Assembly: GCA_017882285.1 (NCBI GenBank)
Contig: JADGPS010000005.1
Span: 2,680 to 66,679, forward strand
Length of the DNA stretch: 64,000 bases
Direction: 5' to 3'
From: Paludibacter sp.
GTDB taxonomy: Bacteria > Bacteroidota > Bacteroidia > Bacteroidales > Paludibacteraceae
Below are positions 52,482 through 64,000 of the stretch, piece after piece (the first letter of the stretch is position 1; every line of letters begins with the position of its first letter). The notes under the pieces are model-generated. The model was not told where the DNA came from. It made no database searches and was given only the letters and a program-made list of their open reading frames with translations. The translations under genes were made by a program, and so were the position numbers.

Positions 52482-54062
52482 ATGAAAAAGAACATATTGG
52501 CAATAGCAATTATATTAAATTGCTCATTCATAATGGCCCAAACTGAATTTGATGCTCTGAAAGTTATTCAAAGCGATATTAATGGAACTGCACGATATAT
52601 GAGTATGGCAGGTGCATTTGGAGCATTGGGTGGTGATGCGTCTGCAATTAAAGATAATCCGGCCGGATTGGGAATTTACCGGAGTTCAGAAATGACCGGT
52701 ACTCTAAATTTAATGGTGCAAAACAGCAATTCAATTTGGAATGCGACGAACGGTTATGATAATTTGAATAAAATTGGATTCAATAACTTCTCCTATGTAA
52801 AAGCAACTCCTACTTATAGAAGTGAAGAAAGCAATACAGGTTTATTAAGTTCTAACTGGTCATTTTCATTTAATCGCCTAAAAAGTTTTGATCGTAACTC
52901 AACAATTAAAAGTCAATATGCTAATTCGTCTATCACAGATTATATGTCATATATTACCAATAATGCCGGGAATATTAACAGTGCTGATTTAAGCTCTGAT
53001 AATAGCCCTTATGACAATATAAATGTACCATGGATTTCTGTAGTAGGGTATCAGGGTTATTTAATTAATGAAAACGTAAACCCTGTTACCAATCAAAGTA
53101 CATGGCCATCGTTGTTAGGAACAAATGAACAAGTAAAACCTTCATTCAGTATTCAGGAAAGTGGATTTCTTGATGAATATTCTATTGGTTGGGCAGGGAA
53201 TTTCAGTAATTTTATTTATTTAGGTGCTACAGTAAATCTTCAATCGTTGGATTACAATGAAAATAGTCAATATTCCGAAATTTTCAGTGGAAATGGTGGT
53301 ATGACTTTAAGTAATACAATTACCACTTCAGGTGTTGGATTTAATATGAATGTTGGTGCAATTATCAGACCAATTGACATGTTACGTTTTGGAGTCTCTG
53401 TTCATTCTCCAACAGTTTTTGCAGTTACAGATAATAATTACGCAAATCTTGATTATTATTTAACGAGATTTTTTACAACAAACGGAAATTTCGATACACC
53501 TTCTGCAACAAATTCTTACATGCTTTCTACTCCGTGGAAATTCAATGGAAGTGCAGCAGTAATTATTGGCCAAAAAGGTTTGATAAGTGCCGAATATGAT
53601 TATAGTTTGAACACAGGCACTTCATTTATGGATCAAAATGGTAATTATCAAAACTATGCAGAAGAAAATGCAGGTATGAAATCAATGTTGAAAGATGTTC
53701 AAACCATTAAAATTGGTGCGGAGTATAAATTGACAAATAATATTTCGTTGCGTGCCGGCTATGCAACTATGAGTGCAGGTTCAAACCCGTTAGCAGATAA
53801 ACTTATAAGATTCAATACAACAAGAACAGATACCGAATATTTTTTAAATAATAAAACTGACTATATTACAGGCGGAATCGGTTATCGTGAAGGTAATTGG
53901 TATATCGATTTAGCTTACATGAATAAAAATATTGACGAAACGTTTTATCCATACAATACAAATGAATTGGTCAGATTAAATCCAAATTTATCAGCTGTTA
54001 ACCCAGCAAGTGTCAAAACTATGAACAATAATATTGTTATAACGGTAGGATTTAAGTTTTAA
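52482..54062 (+). CDS. OmpP1/FadL family outer-membrane transporter
   Basis: GTARYMSMAGAFGALGGDAS..NPAGLG hatch motif; ends VGFKF. Confidence 0.85.
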   Translation: MKKNILAIAIILNCSFIMAQTEFDALKVIQSDINGTARYMSMAGAFGALGGDASAIKDNPAGLGIYRSSEMTGTLNLMVQNSNSIWNATNGYDNLNKIGFNNFSYVKATPTYRSEESNTGLLSSNWSFSFNRLKSFDRNSTIKSQYANSSITDYMSYITNNAGNINSADLSSDNSPYDNINVPWISVVGYQGYLINENVNPVTNQSTWPSLLGTNEQVKPSFSIQESGFLDEYSIGWAGNFSNFIYLGATVNLQSLDYNENSQYSEIFSGNGGMTLSNTITTSGVGFNMNVGAIIRPIDMLRFGVSVHSPTVFAVTDNNYANLDYYLTRFFTTNGNFDTPSATNSYMLSTPWKFNGSAAVIIGQKGLISAEYDYSLNTGTSFMDQNGNYQNYAEENAGMKSMLKDVQTIKIGAEYKLTNNISLRAGYATMSAGSNPLADKLIRFNTTRTDTEYFLNNKTDYITGGIGYREGNWYIDLAYMNKNIDETFYPYNTNELVRLNPNLSAVNPASVKTMNNNIVITVGFKF

Positions 54063-54334: not shown

Positions 54335-55912
54335 ATGTCTTTACAATCCGAAATACAACGCCGACGAACCTTTGCCATTATCAGTCACCCCGATGCGGGT
54401 AAAACAACGCTTACCGAGAAATTGCTTCTTTTTGGTGGTGCCATTCACGTGGCCGGAGCTGTAAAATCAAATAAAATCAAGAAAACTGCTACTTCTGATT
54501 GGATGGAAATCGAAAAACAACGTGGTATTTCCGTGGCAACTTCAGTAATGGGTTTTGAGTATCGGAACTATAAGATCAATATCCTCGACACCCCCGGTCA
54601 TCAGGACTTTGCAGAAGACACATATCGCACCTTGACAGCAGTTGACAGCGTAATTATTGTTATAGATACTGCAAAAGGGGTGGAAGCACAAACCAGAAAA
54701 TTGATGGAAGTTTGTCGAATGCGCAATACGCCTGTAATGATTTTTGTTAACAAAATGGATCGAGAAGGGAAAGATGCATTCGATTTGTTGGATGAATTAG
54801 AAGCTGAACTTGGTATTGCTGTTCGTCCACTTAGTTGGCCTATCAATCAGGGATTTTCTTTCAAAGGTGTGTATAATATTTACAAAGAAAATCTGCAACT
54901 TTTTACTCCCAATAAACAATCAATCAGCGAATCGATAGAACTCTCGGACATCAGCAGCAACGAACTCGACAAACTGGTAGGTGAACATGATGCCAATAAA
55001 CTTCGAGAAGATATGGAATTAATCAACGGCGTTTATTCCAAGTTAGACACCAAAAAATATTTGGCAGGTCATTTGGCACCAGTTTTCTTTGGTAGTGCAT
55101 TAAATAATTTTGGTGTAAAGGAATTGCTGGATTGTTTTGTTGAAATTGCCCCTTCTCCCCGACCGATTCGTACCCAGGAACGCGAAATTAATCCTTACGA
55201 AGAAGCTTTCTCAGGTTTTGTATTTAAAATCCATGCCAATATGGATCCAAATCACCGCAGCTGTATTGCTTTCGTAAAAATTTGCTCCGGTAAGTTTGAG
55301 CGCAACGTGAATTACAAACATATCCGTCACGGAAAAATGATGCGTTTCTCCTCACCAACTGCTTTTATGGCTCAGAAGAAAGAAACGGTAGATGAAGCTT
55401 TTGCAGGTGATATCGTGGGCTTGCCCGATACCGGTAACTTCAAAATTGGTGATACGCTGACCAGTGGTGAAGATCTTCATTTCAAAGGAATTCCAAGCTT
55501 CTCACCTGAAATGTTCAAATATATCGAAAATGACAACCCAATGAAAACTAAACAATTGGATAAAGGTGTAAATCAACTCATGGACGAAGGTGTAGCACAA
55601 TTATTTGTCAATCAATATAATAACCGTAAAATTATTGGAACGGTTGGACAACTTCAGTTTGAAGTTATTCAATACCGCCTGCTACATGAATACGGTGCAC
55701 AATGTCGCTGGGAGCCAATATCACTGTACAAAGCCTGCTGGATTGAAAGCGATGACGCAACAGAGCTTGACAACTTCAAAAAACGCAAAGCACAATATAT
55801 GGCCAAAGACAAAGGAGGACGGGACGTTTTCCTTGCCGACTCAGGTTACGTGCTCCAAATGGCGCAAAATGATTTTAAAAAGATTAAGTTCCATTTTACT
55901 TCAGAGTTCTAG
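54335..55912 (+). CDS. prfC: Peptide chain release factor 3
   Basis: [35 protein letters not shown]; -7 box TACCTTTG at 54281-54288. Confidence 0.97.
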
Positions 55913-55988: not shown

Positions 55989-56509
55989 ATAAAAGTAATC
56001 TAAATTCTTCATCCTCGCATATTTATTCCCTTTCCATTCTCTTTCAACTCATTTATTAACGAAAGAATAAATGTTCTAATAAATTTACAAACGTCCAAGA
56101 TATCTTGGGCGTTTTTTTTTGAAAAAACGAAGTTTTTGGATTTTAAATTTCATTTTTAAGAAATCAAAATTAGTATTTTCTCCAAAAACCCTCATTTTCT
56201 TCTTTTTCAATTTCATTTTTAGGTTGATTTTAAATTCTTATTGATATCATTTTAAAATTATTTTAAATAAATTACTTTCTATTTGTTAGTTTTTCTGAAT
56301 TATATCTATCACTTTGATATTATAGAAAATTTATTTATATCTTTATGGTAGTATTTATTTTAAATTATTGTCAATGTGATTATTTTTGCAATATGATTAA
56401 AACATTATGATATTGTTTTTTATATTTTAGTTTCATAATGATATTTTTATATAATCACAAACAAGGAAACACTTTACTATATAAAACAAATAATTAAAAT
56501 TTTTAAGGT

Positions 56510-57274
56510 ATGAAAAAGATTAACGTTTTAGCAATCTGTTCGATTGCATTGTTCTCAACAATTAATGTTGCAATGGCAACAGGGTCAACTCAAATTTGGA
56601 TTCCTTCAACCGACATTCAAGCATTCAAAACTGTTCACCTTGGTATTGATAATTACATCCGTACTGAAAAACAGTTAGATGGAAAAATTGGAGCAGGTAT
56701 TTATGATTTTGGTTTAACAGCAGGTATATTGCCATTCGGAAAAGTTCAAGCCGAAGTAGGAATTGATTATTTATCTATGGGTGACAATGTTTATGATGTA
56801 CATCCTATTTATTTTAATGCTAAAGTTGGCATCCCTGAAGATTCATTATTTAAAGGCGCACCTGCAATTGCCGTTGGGGCTTACAATTTTGGGACTAAAT
56901 CCAGCCTGACCAATTACAACATGGTTTATGGACTAATTGCTAAAACAATTCCGGTTGTTGGTCGTATTTCAGTTGGGTATTATACCGGCAACAAAAATTT
57001 ACTCGTTGATGAAAACGGGAAAGCATCAAACTCTGGTTTACTTCTTTCGTGGGACAGAGCAATGACAGAAATTTCTGACAAATTATGGTTGGCAGTAGAT
57101 TATCAGGGAGGTAAAAATTATTTAGATGCATTAAACTTGGGTTTCTCATGGGCTTTTTCTAAAAATGTGTCCATAATTTTTGCTTATGATATTTACAATA
57201 ACAAAAATGCAATTTACAACTCAACCAATACAAATGCAAATTCATTTACAACACAGTTAGATATAAACCTATAA
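56510..57274 (+). CDS. Hypothetical exported protein, probable outer-membrane beta-barrel
   Basis: Signal peptide ending AMA; alternating amphipathic strands; ends SFTTQLDINL; first gene of the amt cluster. Confidence 0.6.
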   Translation: MKKINVLAICSIALFSTINVAMATGSTQIWIPSTDIQAFKTVHLGIDNYIRTEKQLDGKIGAGIYDFGLTAGILPFGKVQAEVGIDYLSMGDNVYDVHPIYFNAKVGIPEDSLFKGAPAIAVGAYNFGTKSSLTNYNMVYGLIAKTIPVVGRISVGYYTGNKNLLVDENGKASNSGLLLSWDRAMTEISDKLWLAVDYQGGKNYLDALNLGFSWAFSKNVSIIFAYDIYNNKNAIYNSTNTNANSFTTQLDINL

Positions 57275-57360
57275 AAGTGATTTACTAAATCATTTGGGTT
57301 AAAATAGTTTAGTTTTCTAAGTATAAAAAAAAGAATACATAATAATTTAACAAAAAAAAT

Positions 57361-58905
57361 ATGAGTAAAATAGTAGAACTCCCTTTAAAGGGACGATATT
57401 TTTCAAGAATTCTTGAGAATATATCAAAACCGAAAGATTGGAAACTTTTTGCAACAATCATGACTGGCAAAATGTTAGGATTAATCGCAGTTATAGCTGC
57501 AATGATATTTCTTCCAAATATAATTGGAGGTACTCCTGCTCATGCTGCTGACACTTATACAGCTCACGAAACAGCTGTAATTAATTCACTTAATACAGTT
57601 TGGACACTTGTAGCTGCATTCTTGGTTTTTGGTATGCAAGCAGGATTTGTGATGCTCGAAGCCGGTTTTGCCAGAAAACGCGAAACTGTAAATATCTTGG
57701 TAGAATGTGTGCTCGACACAGCTATTTGTGGTATTTCATTCTGGGCAATTGGTTATGCATTTATGTTTGGTGCAGGAAATGGTTTTATTGGACAACAATA
57801 TTTCTTTTTACAAAATGTACCTGCTACTTATGGTTCAACCGGCGTGGCCATTTTAGCGCATTGGATTTTCCAATTTGCATTTGCCGATACTGCTTCTACC
57901 ATTACTTCAGGTGCAATGATCGGACGTACAAGTTTCCGTGGCGATATCATTTACAGTATCTTCGTTACAGCACTTATTTATCCAATTATTGGTCACTGGG
58001 CTTGGGGACCTGACGGTTTCTTAGCACTTATGGGAACTCCCGGACATTTCATGCCTTCATTGGGTCAACCTTTCCGCGATTTTGCAGGTTCTTCAGTTGT
58101 TCACACCATTGGTGGTATGGTTTCATTAGCCGGAGCAATTGTATTGGGACCACGTATTGGTCGTATATTCTTACGCGATGACAAAAAGCGAGGCGGTTTG
58201 CCTGCAGCTCACAGCTTACCTTTAGCTACAATCGGTGCTTTCTTATTGTGGTTCGGTTGGTACGGTTTCAATCCGGGAAGTACTCTTTCAGCAATGGATT
58301 TTGAAGGAATTGGACGTGTAGCTGCCAATACCACGCTTGCAGCTTGTACAGGATCTTTGGCAACCATGCTTTGTGCACTTTGGATTGGACCTTTTAAAGG
58401 AAAATTTGATACCGGTTTTGCATTAAACGGAATGCTGGCTGGACTTGTAGCTATTACTGCACCTTGTTATTGGGTTTCTCCATTCGGATCGGTAATAATT
58501 GGATTGGTTGCAGGATTGGTTGTATTTGGAGGTGTTTATTTTATGGAATTCTTACGAATTGATGATCCTGTTGGTGCTGTCTCAGTACACGGTTTCGCTG
58601 GAATTTGGGGAACTTTATCACTCGGATTATTTGCAAGCGGACAATTTGGTTCTACTGGACCATTGGGAGCTGACAATACTTCTGTTGTTAAAGGACTATT
58701 TTATGGCGGTGGTTTTGACGTTCTAAAGGCACAAGCAATTGGTAGTTTTACCATTACAGCAGCGACTTTATTGGTTTCATTTATAGTAATGTTTGCCGTT
58801 AGCAAATTACCATATCCGTATAAATTGCGTGTTGAACCGGAAGGTGAAACCGGTCCTGGTGGGCTGGATGTTTGGGAACATGGTGCTGAAGCTTATACGA
58901 ATTAA
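57361..58905 (+). CDS. amt: Ammonium transporter (Amt) 1 with extended N-terminus
   Basis: MQAGF.MLEAG, FQFAFA, DFAGSSVVH, LWFGWYGFNPGS, DDPVGAVSVHG. Confidence 0.93.
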   Translation: MSKIVELPLKGRYFSRILENISKPKDWKLFATIMTGKMLGLIAVIAAMIFLPNIIGGTPAHAADTYTAHETAVINSLNTVWTLVAAFLVFGMQAGFVMLEAGFARKRETVNILVECVLDTAICGISFWAIGYAFMFGAGNGFIGQQYFFLQNVPATYGSTGVAILAHWIFQFAFADTASTITSGAMIGRTSFRGDIIYSIFVTALIYPIIGHWAWGPDGFLALMGTPGHFMPSLGQPFRDFAGSSVVHTIGGMVSLAGAIVLGPRIGRIFLRDDKKRGGLPAAHSLPLATIGAFLLWFGWYGFNPGSTLSAMDFEGIGRVAANTTLAACTGSLATMLCALWIGPFKGKFDTGFALNGMLAGLVAITAPCYWVSPFGSVIIGLVAGLVVFGGVYFMEFLRIDDPVGAVSVHGFAGIWGTLSLGLFASGQFGSTGPLGADNTSVVKGLFYGGGFDVLKAQAIGSFTITAATLLVSFIVMFAVSKLPYPYKLRVEPEGETGPGGLDVWEHGAEAYTN

Positions 58906-59068
58906 TTTATATAATATTGAATTTGAAATAGGAGAACTAAAAACCCCTATTTTAAAAATCAATTAATTTCTAAAAAAAAGTAGCTAAATTCTCAATCAAA
59001 TGAATTAATTTTGAAATTCACAGGGAATCAAACTCAAAAATTATTAATTTATTAATTTATTAATCATT

Positions 59069-59416
59069 ATGAAAAAAATAGAAGCAATTATCAGACGCTC
59101 AAAATTCGATGAAGTTAAAGCAGCGTTACATGCCATTGATATAGATTTTTTTACTTATACTGAAACTTTTGGAGTAGGAAACGAAAGAAAAAAGAAAGAT
59201 GTTTTTCGCGGGTCTTCAAATACAGATTTTATTTCCCGCCTATCATTATCCATTGTCGTTCGTGATATAAATTTGAAGAAAACAATTGAATGTTTGTTGA
59301 ATACAGCATATACCGGCGAAATTGGTGACGGTAAAATATTTGTATCTACAATCGAGGAATCTTATCGTATCAGAACCGGCGAAAGTGGAGATGAATCTTT
59401 ATATATGAAAGAATAA
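59069..59416 (+). CDS. P-II family nitrogen regulator 1
   Basis: MKKIEAIIR, TGEIGDGKIFV, RIRTGESG. Confidence 0.92.
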   Translation: MKKIEAIIRRSKFDEVKAALHAIDIDFFTYTETFGVGNERKKKDVFRGSSNTDFISRLSLSIVVRDINLKKTIECLLNTAYTGEIGDGKIFVSTIEESYRIRTGESGDESLYMKE

Positions 59417-59604
59417 ATTTCTCATTTATAATGAGGATAAATGATTGAATTTGTGGAATTTATTGCGATGGTAAGCTATAAATTTATTTATTGATTTACA
59501 GTAGTATTATTCCACTTTTCAACGTATAGATTCTTACATATTAAACTCAAACACGGTGAAACTGCTTACCACTAATCTGTGTTTTTTTAGTTTTATTGTT
59601 TTGT

Positions 59605-59632
59605 ACAGGCTATTTCTCACGAAATAGCCTGT
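59605..59632. terminator. Hairpin (probable terminator) between the two P-II genes
   Basis: ACAGGCTATTTC-TCAC-GAAATAGCCTGT perfect 12-bp stem. Confidence 0.7.
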
Positions 59633-59806
59633 CTGTATTTTGATACTAAAAAAAACGTTTAAAATAAAATTATTATCTTTTTGGAATTTTTCAAAGGAAA
59701 AGATGCATTTGTCAATAATAATTACAAAATTATGAACAATAATATCGTATTATATGTTATTTTCTTACAAATATATGATATTATATGAAATATATTATCA
59801 TTTTGA

Positions 59807-59837
59807 TTTGTAATATAAAGATAAAATCATACTTTTG
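59807..59837 (+). promoter_or_regulatory. -33/-7 promoter for P-II 2 / amt 2
   Basis: TTTG (59807-59810), 19-nt spacer, TACTTTTG (59830-59837). Confidence 0.7.
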
Positions 59838-59971
59838 CACTCGATTTACAAAAAGACATAAATCAACTCAAAATACACGTATATTGTAAATCGTATTTGA
59901 GTAATTTAAAACAAAATAAAATTAGATAAAGGAAAGTTGAAACATTTCACCTATCAATAATATAACCTTTC

Positions 59972-60319
59972 ATGAAAAAAATTGAAGCAGTTATTCGCAA
60001 GTCAAAATTTGAAGATGTAAAACAAGCATTATACGATGCCGGCATCGAATGGTTTTCATACTGGGACATTACCGGATTAGGGAAATCAACTGAAGAACAA
60101 ATTGTTAGAGGTCAGGCTTTTCAATCGAGCTATATTCACAGAAGAATGATTTCTATAGTGGTACGTGACATTAACTTAGACAAAACACTCGAAGCTATTC
60201 TAAATTCAGCCTGGACAGGTGAAACCGGTGATGGAAAAATTTTCATTTACGACATTCAAGATACTATTCGCATTCGAACTCGCGAATCGGGACCTGAAGC
60301 ATTATTCAACAAAGAATAA
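59972..60319 (+). CDS. P-II family nitrogen regulator 2
   Basis: MKKIEAVIR, TGETGDGKIFI, RIRTRESG; directly upstream of amt 2. Confidence 0.92.
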   Translation: MKKIEAVIRKSKFEDVKQALYDAGIEWFSYWDITGLGKSTEEQIVRGQAFQSSYIHRRMISIVVRDINLDKTLEAILNSAWTGETGDGKIFIYDIQDTIRIRTRESGPEALFNKE

Positions 60320-60357
60320 AAGAAAGAATTATTGATTATTTATTTTAGATTATTCAA

Positions 60358-61728
60358 ATGAAGAAATATATCCTATTGATAATGAACTTATTGACAATTT
60401 TTTATTCAACTCTTTCTGCTCAAAATTCAACTCAACCGGTTGCTCCAAGTGTAAATGCAGGCGATACTGCATGGATGATAGTTGCTACTGCATTCGTATT
60501 ATTAATGTCTATTCCCGGCTTGGCTTTGTTTTATGGTGGTTTAGTTCGGCGTAAAAACGTGTTGAACGTTTTTATGCAAGTATTTATTATTGTTGCTATT
60601 GTAAGTATAGAATGGGTAATTTGCGGATACAGTTTATCTTTTGGTAGTTCAAAGGGATTCCTTTCTCCTTTTATTGGTGGCTTTGATTGGGCATTTTTAA
60701 ATAATATCAAAATCACTGATCTCAGTCCGTATTTTATTTCTCACTCACAAATCGGATTAGATGGTCATGTTACCGGTACTATACCACATATCATATTTAT
60801 TATGTATCAATGTATGTTTGCTGTAATTACCCCGGCTTTAATTATTGGTGCTTTTGCTGAACGTATTAGCTTTAAAGGATTTTTTGTCTTCACTATATTA
60901 TGGTCTATTTTCGTATATAATCCTGTGGCACACTGGGTCTGGTCAGTTGATGGATGGCTGTTTAAACTTGGAGCTTTAGATTTTGCTGGCGGAACAGTTG
61001 TTCATATCAATGCCGGTATTGCTGCCATTGTAACAGCAATCATGCTTGGAAAACGCCGAGATTACAAACGTCACGCTATACCACCTCACAACATAACTTA
61101 TGTGGTAATGGGAGCCGGTTTACTTTGGGTCGGTTGGTTTGGATTTAATGCAGGAAGTGGGCTTGCTGCTGATGGACTTGCTGGAAATGCTCTAATGGTA
61201 ACGCATATTGCTGCGGCCGCTGCGGCTTTAACATGGTTCATAATGGATTGGTTTATAGATAAAAGACCAACTGTTGTAGGAATTAGTACCGGTGCAGTTG
61301 CCGGTTTGGTTGCAATCACTCCCGCAGCCGGATTTGTAGGCATTCCCGGAGCATTGGTTATTGGTATGGTTGTTTCAATTGTTTGTTTCTGCATGGTTGC
61401 TTATGTTAAACCAAAATTAGGATATGATGATTCTTTAGATGCGTTTGGTGTTCATGGAATCGGTGGTATAATCGGCGCTATTTTAACAGGTGTATTTGCA
61501 TCTCCATTAATTCAATCGGCTTATAGTGGTGCAATTTATGGAAATTTTCATCAAGTTTTAGTCCAATTGATTGCTGTATTTTCGATTATAATTTATTCAG
61601 GAATCGGAACATTTATATTGTTTAAAATTACAGAGAAACTCGTCGGAATTCGTGCTTCTGATAAGCATGAAGCAATTGGATTGGATGAAACTCAACATGG
61701 AGAAACCGCCTATAATAATTTCGATTAA
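60358..61728 (+). CDS. amt: Ammonium transporter AmtB-type 2
   Basis: GDTAW, PGLALFYGGLV, DFAGGTVVH, GWFGFNAGS, DDSLDAFGVHG, GLD..QHGE.AY. Confidence 0.95.
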   Translation: MKKYILLIMNLLTIFYSTLSAQNSTQPVAPSVNAGDTAWMIVATAFVLLMSIPGLALFYGGLVRRKNVLNVFMQVFIIVAIVSIEWVICGYSLSFGSSKGFLSPFIGGFDWAFLNNIKITDLSPYFISHSQIGLDGHVTGTIPHIIFIMYQCMFAVITPALIIGAFAERISFKGFFVFTILWSIFVYNPVAHWVWSVDGWLFKLGALDFAGGTVVHINAGIAAIVTAIMLGKRRDYKRHAIPPHNITYVVMGAGLLWVGWFGFNAGSGLAADGLAGNALMVTHIAAAAAALTWFIMDWFIDKRPTVVGISTGAVAGLVAITPAAGFVGIPGALVIGMVVSIVCFCMVAYVKPKLGYDDSLDAFGVHGIGGIIGAILTGVFASPLIQSAYSGAIYGNFHQVLVQLIAVFSIIIYSGIGTFILFKITEKLVGIRASDKHEAIGLDETQHGETAYNNFD

Positions 61729-62132
61729 TTTTCAATAAATATTTTTGTACTATAAAGGATTTAACAACTAATTTAACTTATGAATCAAAGATTTAAAACA
61801 TCGTTTTGAGATTAATAGTATCAGATTATAATAAACATTTATTACTACCTTTGTAAACCAAAAATTTTAAATTTATTATAATCTGATAAGAATATATCTC
61901 TGTTCAATGATTTTAATTTATCATTTATATAATAGGTTTAATTTCAATCTGACATATATTTATCTATTATTGTTTCATATTAAAACATAATCATCTTTTT
62001 TTTCATAAAGACATTTATTTCAGCTATATGATTTTCATTTTTACTAATTTTGCATAGATTTTATTACAATACGATAGATTTAAGTCGAAAAATGAAAAAT
62101 TTGAATAAAAATAACCCTCAAAAAATAAAATT

Positions 62133-64000
62133 ATGTCATCATTAAGATTTAAAGCAGTAGAAGAAGCTTTTAAGAAAAAAGCAATCGTAGTTACACCTCC
62201 ATCAAAGTTCACTTCCGATTATTATGGAAAATCTGTTTTCAATCGTGCCACAATGGCAAAATATCTTTCCAAAGACACATTGAAAGAACTTAAAAACGTA
62301 ATTGACAAAGGAGCCACTCTGAATCTTACCATTGCAAATGATGTAGCGGCAGGTATGAGAATGTGGGCGATGGATTTAGGGGCAACTCATTACACACACT
62401 GGTTTCAACCATTAACCGATGGAACAGCAGAAAAACATGACTCGTTTATTGATTATGTAGGTGCTCCAGGTGAAACAGTCATCGAAGATTTTTCAGGAAA
62501 ACTTCTTGCTCAACAAGAACCAGATGCATCTTCTTTCCCAAGTGGAGGAATTCGCAGCACATTCGAAGCACGGGGTTATACTGCATGGGATCCTTCATCC
62601 CCGGCATTTGTAGTTGACGACACATTGGTTATACCTACAATTTTCATTTCTTACACTGGAGAATCGCTTGACTTAAAAGCTCCTTTATTGAAAGCGTTGA
62701 GTGCTGTTGACAAAGCAGCAACTGCAGTTTGTCAAATGTTCGATCCAAGTGTAAAGAAAGTGTTATCATTTTTAGGTTGGGAGCAAGAATATTTCTTGGT
62801 TGATGAAGGTTTGTACGCAACTCGTCCGGACTTAGTGTTAACCGGTCGTACTTTATTGGGACATGAATCAGCAAAAAACCAACAATTGGATGATCATTAT
62901 TTTGGTTCTGTTCCAAGTCGTGTGGCTGCATATATGAAAGATATAGAATTTGAAGCTTACAAATATGGAATCCCTGCTAAAACCCGTCACAACGAGGTTG
63001 CACCAAACCAATTTGAGTTAGCTCCAATCTTTGGAGAATGCAACTTATCTGTTGACCAAAACTTATTGATGATGTCCATCATGAAAAAAGTTGCACGTCG
63101 TCATGGATTTCGTTTGTTGTTACACGAAAAACCATTTGCCGGTATTAACGGCTCAGGTAAACACAATAACTGGTCGCTTGGAACTGATACCGGTGTTGGA
63201 TTATTCACACCGGGCAAAACACCTGAGGAAAATCTACAATTCGTTACATTCCTTGTAAACACATTGATGGCTGTTTATAAACATAATGCTTTATTGAAAG
63301 CCTCAATTATGACTGCTCAAAATGCTCACCGTTTGGGAGCAAACGAAGCACCACCGGCAATTGTTTCAGCATTCATTGGAACTCAATTGACAGCCATTCT
63401 TGATAAACTGGAAAACAGTACAAGTGAAGAAGCAATAGTTGTAAGTGCTAAAAAAAAATTAAGTTTAGGTATTGCACATATTCCTGAAGTATTCCTTGAC
63501 AATACTGACCGTAACCGTACTTCACCATTTGCTTTTACCGGAAACCGGTTTGAATTCAGAGCTGTTGGCTCTTCTGCAAACTGTTCGTCGGCTATGGCAA
63601 CCCTGAATGCTGCTGTTGCTGCTCAATTAACCGAATTTAAATCTGAAGTAGATGCTAAAATCGCTGCCGGTTCAACCAAAGAGAAAGCAATTTTTGATGT
63701 TATCAAATCATATATTAAAGCTTCAAAAGCTATTCGTTTTGATGGAAACGGTTACAGCGAAGAATGGAAACTCGAAGCTGCTGAACGTGGATTGGATTGT
63801 GAAACAAGCGTACCAAAAATTATAAAAGCATACACTTCAAAATCAAGCATTGAGTTATTCAAATCAACTGGTGTATTATCGGCAGTTGAACTTCATGCCC
63901 GAAATGAAGTCAAATGGGAAACTTATAACAAAAAGATTCAAATTGAATCACGTGTTTTGGGTGACTTGGCAATCAATCATATTATTCCAATTGCTACACG
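62133..64000 (+). CDS. Glutamine synthetase type III (3' end beyond window)
   Basis: MSSLRFKAV..., HWFQPLT, EPDASSFPSGGIRSTFEARGYTAWD, HNEVAPNQFE, KPFAGINGSGKHNNWS, NRTSPFAFTGNRFEFRAVGSS; absent from the ORF track because no stop is reached. Confidence 0.95.
   Translation, partial: MSSLRFKAVEEAFKKKAIVVTPPSKFTSDYYGKSVFNRATMAKYLSKDTLKELKNVIDKGATLNLTIANDVAAGMRMWAMDLGATHYTHWFQPLTDGTAEKHDSFIDYVGAPGETVIEDFSGKLLAQQEPDASSFPSGGIRSTFEARGYTAWDPSSPAFVVDDTLVIPTIFISYTGESLDLKAPLLKALSAVDKAATAVCQMFDPSVKKVLSFLGWEQEYFLVDEGLYATRPDLVLTGRTLLGHESAKNQQLDDHYFGSVPSRVAAYMKDIEFEAYKYGIPAKTRHNEVAPNQFELAPIFGECNLSVDQNLLMMSIMKKVARRHGFRLLLHEKPFAGINGSGKHNNWSLGTDTGVGLFTPGKTPEENLQFVTFLVNTLMAVYKHNALLKASIMTAQNAHRLGANEAPPAIVSAFIGTQLTAILDKLENSTSEEAIVVSAKKKLSLGIAHIPEVFLDNTDRNRTSPFAFTGNRFEFRAVGSSANCSSAMATLNAAVAAQLTEFKSEVDAKIAAGSTKEKAIFDVIKSYIKASKAIRFDGNGYSEEWKLEAAERGLDCETSVPKIIKAYTSKSSIELFKSTGVLSAVELHARNEVKWETYNKKIQIESRVLGDLAINHIIPIAT

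Follow-up and report, generated by a model that had tools for sequence, protein, structure and literature searches.

Background

Why should a bacterium place the gene for an exported, beta-rich protein with no recognizable domain at the head of an operon for ammonium uptake? The question is raised by a 64,000-nucleotide stretch of DNA from Paludibacter sp., a member of the Bacteroidales (GenBank assembly GCA_017882285.1, contig JADGPS010000005.1, positions 2,680 to 66,679 of the forward strand), which is called the window below and whose own numbering is used throughout. In the window, the gene for a protein of 254 residues, designated here as P0001 (56510..57274, + strand), is followed by amt1, encoding an ammonium transporter, and by a gene for a regulatory protein of the P-II type. 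An earlier interpretation made from the letters alone, the sequence-only reading, had suggested that P0001 is an outer-membrane barrel acting as a dedicated pore for ammonium or amines.

In the textbook view, the outer membrane (OM) is freely permeable to K+ and NH4+ by way of general porins, and high-affinity uptake begins at the inner membrane with AmtB and KdpFABC. Here we describe P0001 as a member of a conserved family that is predicted to form 12-stranded barrels and is coupled to amt or kdp genes in several phyla. The interpretation that we favor, by a modest degree, is that P0001 is a cation-selective NH4+/K+ channel of the OM, produced along with the uptake systems of the inner membrane.

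Results and discussion

P0001 belongs to a conserved, unnamed family

P0001 is not an orphan but a member of a conserved family that has no name. A signal peptide is predicted, with cleavage between …NVAMA and TGST…, leaving 231 mature residues. Searches with P0001 gave no Pfam, NCBIfam or PDB sequence match, and comparison of 49 family members with Pfam at E <= 1 yielded no meaningful match, nor did comparison of the family profile with PDB sequences; stray weak matches (Porin_4, YjbH, OmpA fragments) were confined to single family members. At 90% identity 2,920 clusters match P0001, and all of those that carry a name are called "hypothetical protein"; at 50% identity there are 409 clusters, as found with HMMER in an exhaustive search through 1.8 billion representatives. 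The matches in the ESM Atlas are unnamed clusters, apart from one that was automatically named "Outer membrane channel". In the literature, with subscription journals mostly outside the coverage, we found nothing on the function of this family, on an ammonium- or potassium-specific porin, or on porins in kdp operons.

The family C-terminus is conserved as …QLDINF, an OM beta-signal, with …FTTQLDINF in close relatives. The last codon of the window gene (57272-57274) specifies Leu, while nearly all relatives, including a kdp-linked paralog from the same genome that is described below, end with the canonical aromatic Phe. The general marks of OM beta-barrels are found together in the family, namely a signal peptide, 12 predicted amphipathic strands and the beta-signal, the window copy ending in L.

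P0001 is predicted to be a 12-stranded barrel with an acidic lining

The sequence-only reading had named structure prediction as a check on the barrel-like character of the protein. An initial AlphaFold2 model from 26 close homologs was moderate (predicted local distance difference test, pLDDT, 69) and was replaced by one from a deeper alignment of 49 diverse homologs, which has 12 beta-strands, a pLDDT of 93.4 and a predicted template modeling score (pTM) of 0.85. When this model was compared with all PDB structures using VIA-align, the top matches were 12-stranded OM barrels, and Foldseek concurred. These matches include FapF (PDB 5o65, Z 17.3), KdgM (PDB 4pr7, Z 16.8), the COG4313 channel (PDB 4rl8, Z 16.6), VhGalP (PDB 8xua, Z 16.0) and NanC (PDB 2wjr, Z 15.4); the comparison also matched autotransporter beta-domains (Z 14-16), LpxR (Z 14.4), a designed 12-strand barrel (Z 14.2) and OMPLA (Z 11.1). 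P0001 is confidently predicted to be a 12-stranded OM beta-barrel, and signal peptide, model and fold searches agree with the exported, beta-rich and barrel-like protein that had been proposed.

The lumen face was assigned from sequence periodicity, that is, from strand alternation in the 49 sequences: in 10 of the 12 strands one face is 80-100% hydrophobic and the other polar. Conserved acidic residues occupy the presumed lumen face at D47, D66, E82, D86, D182, D197, D251 and D/N253, with E82, D86 and D197 acidic in 100% of the sequences. Conserved basic residues on the same face are only two, K105 (100%) and R152 (83%), and several glycines are likewise conserved there. Because the lining assigned in this way is acidic, the reverse of the basic lining of KdgM and NanC, it predicts cation selectivity. 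Also highly conserved are the first 18 residues of the mature protein, with the motif T[GP]STxxWIPSxD.

The barrel gene is linked to amt and kdp genes across phyla

Genomic context was tallied for 109 distinct copies, of which 101 have assessable flanks and eight lie at contig edges; the tally is for the family less its most divergent members (25-40% identity). In a pattern scan, 185,579 species genomes yielded 406 loci, of which the best 80 were taken, and the phylum samples comprised 401 Bacteroidota genomes and 301 genomes of the Geobacter phylum. An amt gene, a P-II gene or both lie within 1.2 kb on the same strand in 80 of the 101 assessable copies, and kdp genes are adjacent to seven others, one of which has a P-II gene upstream as well. 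The linkage of the barrel gene to amt exceeds chance by far. Co-occurrence with amt across phyla, another check named in the sequence-only reading, was thus observed, and in three gene orders: barrel-amt-PII, barrel-PII-amt and PII-amt-barrel. The claim that the barrel gene comes first in its amt operon holds for the window, where terminators bound a unit made up of this gene, amt1 and P-II, but not as a general rule, the order PII-amt-barrel occurring elsewhere. Either of the window's two Amt clades can supply the partner; both clades being represented along with three gene orders, the link has therefore survived repeated rearrangement.

The best 80 of the 406 loci are from Bacteroidales, Paludibacter, Prolixibacteraceae, Geobacteraceae, Desulfuromonadales, Nitrospirae, Elusimicrobia and others, and most of them are on metagenome-assembled genomes (MAGs) of fen, peat, lake-water and groundwater origin. 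Copies linked to amt or kdp span Bacteroidota, Thermodesulfobacteriota, Nitrospirota, Elusimicrobiota and further phyla.

The coupling to potassium uptake is found in the source genome of the window itself, where a second barrel copy, 79-81% identical to P0001, heads kdpA-kdpB-kdpC-kdpD. A distant Bacteroidota genus repeats this pair, with one copy beside P-II and Amt genes and the other inside kdp between kdpB and kdpD. The kdp order in that genus (loci L010 2243-12271 and L008) is kdpC-like, kdpA, kdpB, barrel, kdpD, so that the barrel gene is internal rather than first.

Other neighbors of the family are APC-type permeases and a sigma54 activator. Genes of the APC family (AA_permease) follow the barrel gene in L007 (6265-8592) and in L081 (8001-16661), in the latter case ahead of amt-PII-amt, and these permeases may be a further nitrogen-uptake partner.

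One channel type may serve both uptake systems

In a maximum-likelihood tree, computed in quick search mode, the kdp-linked copies do not form one clade but fall among amt-linked copies from their own lineage, in mixed clades with 99-100% support. The two copies of one genome are sisters, and well-supported branches require at least three switches of context. The alignment has no column that discriminates kdp-linked from amt-linked copies, and the conserved lumen residues are all identical between P0001 and the kdp-linked paralog of its own genome. A candidate signature of K+ versus NH4+ specialization, a 6-residue loop insertion in that paralog, was rejected, as the insertion is also present in amt-linked copies.

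NH4+ and K+ are almost equal in size and charge. For this reason the simplest reading of the tree and alignment is that one channel type serves both uptake systems. The permeant is likely to be NH4+/K+, because the family also occurs in kdp operons and carries no sequence signature separating the kdp-linked from the amt-linked copies. Of the "ammonium or amine pore" in the sequence-only reading, the barrel and the link to ammonium uptake are retained, while the kdp linkage points to NH4+/K+ rather than to amines.

Relatives in Geobacter carry nitrogen-type leaders

A profile search of 12 genomes from the genus Geobacter found the family in 10 (E 1e-95 to 1e-109). Amt is adjacent in seven of eight newly retrieved loci from this genus, and the order is barrel-PII-Amt in six of the eight. 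One such copy, at 1.009 Mb, is preceded by TGGCAC-N5-ATGCT and by a GC-rich hairpin with a T-run, which constitute a sigma54 promoter plus hairpin leader.

In G. sulfurreducens, the operon GSU0938-glnK-amtB (Gsul_0938), consisting of a "hypothetical protein" together with glnK and amtB, belongs to the nitrogen-fixation regulon (PMC2995071; PMC2725144) and has an antitermination leader with premature termination (PMC2995071); GSU0939 is listed as P-II (PMC2725144). Because the order barrel-PII-Amt, the sigma54 promoter and the hairpin leader fit this published operon, we infer that the family includes GSU0938, whose product both papers call hypothetical only, with no fold, location or function proposed (PMC2995071, PMC2725144). 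The organism of the window differs from this case in being a member of the Bacteroidota, in its promoter type and in the order barrel-amt-PII. Furthermore, five stand-alone copies in Geomonas/Citrifermentans, which do not adjoin amt, keep the sigma54 promoter and the same hairpin leader, and for that reason they appear to have stayed in the nitrogen regulon.

A candidate NH4+/K+ channel of the outer membrane

We propose that P0001 is a small cation-selective channel that would pass NH4+ across the OM; where copies are linked to kdp, K+ would cross through the same channel type. The channel would be made together with the high-affinity systems of the inner membrane, Amt/GlnK in the window and KdpABC in the case of the paralog, under scarcity of these ions, and would thus correspond, for cations, to PhoE and OprP, the porins of phosphate starvation. 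The proposal, to which we give somewhat better than even chances, draws its support from the predicted barrel fold, the conserved acidic positions that appear to face the lumen, the genomic link, in several phyla, to amt and kdp and the nitrogen-type leaders in Geobacteraceae. From these we infer an open barrel that conducts NH4+/K+, and uptake that is limited in these organisms by passage through the OM. A stronger version, in which the family is a truly ion-selective channel that prefers K+/NH4+ over Na+ and divalent cations, with a filter made up of E82/D86/D197/K105 and the WIPS segment, is put forward only tentatively, and we would sooner bet against it.

Several observations weigh against an open channel dedicated to these ions. 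The family is rare, with members in seven of the 401 sampled Bacteroidota genomes and 21 of the 301 from the Geobacter phylum, and most bacteria therefore do without such a barrel. Among the 101 assessable copies, 14 with complete flanks have neither amt nor kdp genes beside them, the five Geomonas/Citrifermentans copies being counted here. The facing of the lumen residues follows from sequence alternation rather than from coordinates, and in strands 5 and 6 both faces are hydrophobic. The conserved N-terminal T[GP]STxxWIPSxD segment might plug the lumen, or line it, and the alignments with FapF and COG4313 reach into this segment (model residues 18 or 26 to 254). The FapF and COG4313 barrels are occluded. 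Finally, some 12-stranded barrels, as represented by LpxR and OMPLA among the structural matches, are enzymes or have no open pore, and the identity of ~70% between near relatives from different genera is high for a porin.

P0001 could instead be a pore for the non-selective diffusion of small solutes, raising general OM permeability under starvation with no preference for NH4+ or K+; the resemblance of the 12-stranded fold to pores of the KdgM/NanC type would suit this, as would the copies that adjoin APC-type permeases or stand alone, by which the association with amt and kdp is not exclusive. We nevertheless regard a non-selective pore as rather unlikely, given that 87 of the 101 assessable copies go with only two systems, both for monovalent cations of the same size, that invariant acidic positions on the presumed lumen face and very high conservation suggest a specific filter, and that, two or three APC cases apart, the family showed no links to loci for sugars, phosphate or amino acids. 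A pore for another nitrogen compound, such as methylamine, other amines or urea, would be in keeping with the transport of methylammonium by Amt proteins and with the few copies beside APC-family permeases (L007, L081). Such a substrate, however, leaves the recurrent linkage of near-identical paralogs to kdp unexplained, and no urease or amine-catabolism genes lie next to any copy examined; its probability appears very low to us.

The protein might also not be a channel at all, but an OM enzyme or a structural or anchoring barrel of the LpxR, OMPLA or PagP type, serving, for example, envelope remodeling under N/K limitation. The fold matches to LpxR (Z 14.4) and OMPLA (Z 11.1), the possible occupation of the lumen by the N-terminal segment and the unusually high conservation, which extends to loop motifs such as EISDKLW and to the N-terminal WIPS segment, would all agree with this. 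The active sites of LpxR and OMPLA, however, sit on the lipid-facing surface, whereas the conserved polar and acidic residues of P0001 lie on the presumed lumen face. Since, in addition, no enzyme family matches it in sequence, and genes embedded in transporter operons are typically those of transport partners, we judge a barrel of this kind improbable.

Comparison with known barrels and porins

Among characterized proteins, the substrate-specific OM channels KdgM and NanC come closest to the candidate channel in fold and resemble it in gene placement: they are small, monomer-sized 12-stranded barrels (PDB 4pr7, 2wjr, 8xua; Z 15-17, root-mean-square deviation 2.6-3.4 Å), and the gene adjoins an inner-membrane uptake system for the substrate, so that joint induction is expected. 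The pores of KdgM and NanC have a basic lining, are anion-selective and serve acidic sugars or oligosaccharides. The P0001 family, in contrast, has no PF06178 match or sequence relationship to them, and its lumen, as assigned by sequence alternation, appears acidic, its conserved acidic residues numbering seven or eight and the basic ones two. The gene partners also differ, being pectin or sialic-acid genes for KdgM/NanC and amt and kdp for the P0001 family.

PhoE of E. coli and OprP/OprO of Pseudomonas are phosphate-starvation porins, 16-stranded, trimeric and anion-selective. The likeness of P0001 to these proteins would be functional only and would lie in the logic of an ion-selective channel co-regulated with high-affinity inner-membrane uptake when the ion is scarce. 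The operon structure in the window, the nitrogen-type leaders in Geobacteraceae and the published Geobacter regulon (PMC2995071) speak for such co-regulation. P0001 is predicted to be 12-stranded, is probably cation-selective and has no sequence relationship to them. The COG4313 channel (4rl8) and FapF (5o65) are the best structural matches over the whole length, N-terminal segment included (Z 16.6-17.3). Their barrels carry hydrophobic molecules or amyloid subunits, and they have no sequence similarity, acidic lumen or genomic context in common with the P0001 family.

A second barrel family shows the same association: TorF/Gcw_chp (PF09694) genes lie directly downstream of Amt in two of the sampled Geobacter-phylum genomes (L120 1414-2172; L121 1375-2163). 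Membership of P0001 in TorF/Gcw_chp was rejected, as hhalign of the family against five TorF members gave a probability of 0.9%, and a PF09694 search of the genome of the window found no match. These findings suggest that different, unrelated small barrels, the P0001 family and TorF, were recruited convergently beside amt. An extra membrane-protein gene is also co-transcribed with glnK-amtB in the nlmA-glnK-amtB operon of H. seropedicae, which is induced by nitrogen limitation and whose membrane protein NlmA is of unknown function (PMC3023670).

If the proposal holds, a dedicated, co-regulated OM channel would be the missing first step of nitrogen and potassium scavenging in Bacteroidota, Geobacter and further anaerobes that live in peat, sediment and groundwater, and a conserved gene in the nitrogen regulon of Geobacter, called "hypothetical", would gain a function. 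The protein would also be a compact, 12-stranded cation-selective pore of possible use in nanopore engineering. Were the stronger, ion-selective version to be correct, this would be the first selective cation channel of the bacterial OM, and the repeated, convergent recruitment of the P0001 family into amt and kdp operons, next to that of unrelated barrels such as TorF, would show that the OM is a kinetic barrier to K+/NH4+ scavenging in ion-poor habitats. For a direct test of the channel idea, G. sulfurreducens offers a genetically tractable organism.

Organization of the nitrogen cluster in the window

The gene order given by the sequence-only reading, an OM-barrel-like gene, amt1, P-II, a promoter, then P-II, amt2 and a gene for type III glutamine synthetase (GS-III), was borne out by open reading frames (ORFs) and domain matches, all genes being on the + strand. 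The gene for P0001, the candidate NH4+/K+ channel, is followed by amt1 (57361..58905), whose 514-residue product matches PF00909 over residues 80-512 (E 1e-107) and begins with a signal-like extension of ~80 residues. Then come P-II-1, a GlnK-like protein of 115 residues (59069..59416), P-II-2, also of 115 residues (59972..60319), and amt2 (60358..61728), encoding an AmtB-like ammonium transporter of 456 residues (E 4e-123). The gene for GS-III (62133..63998; GSIII_N, E 2e-73, and Gln-synt_C) continues past the end of the window.

Upstream of the cluster lies prfC (54335..55912), the unit of which is closed by a terminator-like hairpin with a T-run at 56089..56114 (+ strand; 11-bp stem with 5 GC pairs), forming the 5' boundary of the nitrogen unit. 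Candidate promoters on the + strand were found as matches to the Bacteroidota-type -7 consensus TAnnTTTG, each followed by CA. One such box, TATTTTTG, lies at 56381..56388, 122 nt 5' of the barrel start codon; another, TACTTTTG, at 59830..59837, 135 nt 5' of P-II-2; and a third, TAATTTTG, at 62045..62052, 81 nt 5' of the GS-III gene. The core TTTTGCA is common to all three. A strong intrinsic-terminator-like hairpin with a T-run (59605..59632, + strand; 12-bp perfect stem) ends the barrel-amt1-PII-1 unit, and the 555-bp spacer between P-II-1 and P-II-2 contains both this hairpin and the -7 box at 59830-59837. Scanning for terminator-like hairpins gave none between the genes of the barrel-amt1-PII-1 unit, and the 86-nt gap between the barrel gene and amt1 has neither a terminator-like site nor a -7 box. 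Because of this placement of hairpins and boxes, the cluster can be read as three units, barrel-amt1-PII-1, PII-2-amt2 and GS-III. A possible additional box, again TAATTTTG, at 59006..59013 (+ strand, consensus match) precedes P-II-1 and could be a promoter of its own for that gene.

The two Amt/P-II pairs are as dissimilar as had been claimed, with 31% identity between Amt-1 and Amt-2 and 51% between P-II-1 and P-II-2. Because the Amt clades differ and the transcription units appear to be separate, distinct affinity or regulation of the two pairs, as the same reading had suggested, is plausible. The T-loops of P-II-1 and P-II-2 are non-canonical (…GVGNERKKKDVFRGSSNTDF… and …GLGKSTEEQIVRGQAFQSSY…), and both proteins are without an obvious equivalent of Tyr51, the uridylylation site in proteobacterial GlnB/GlnK. 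In two Paludibacter-type MAGs (loci L013 and L014), three Amt and three P-II genes follow the barrel gene in series, the third PII-amt pair occupying the position that the GS-III gene has in the window.

Upstream of the GS-III gene there is a perfect 17-nt inverted repeat, TATCAGATTATAATAAA / TTTATTATAATCTGATA (61819-61835 / 61872-61888, arms 36 nt apart), which could be an operator. AT-rich inverted repeats are numerous in the intergenic regions, as expected at ~20% GC. Two genes 5' of the nitrogen cluster, a 526-residue ORF (52482-54062, + strand) has no Pfam match and a weak PorV/PorQ-family match only (NF033709, E 6e-6, residues 387-482); its product may be another uncharacterized OM protein.

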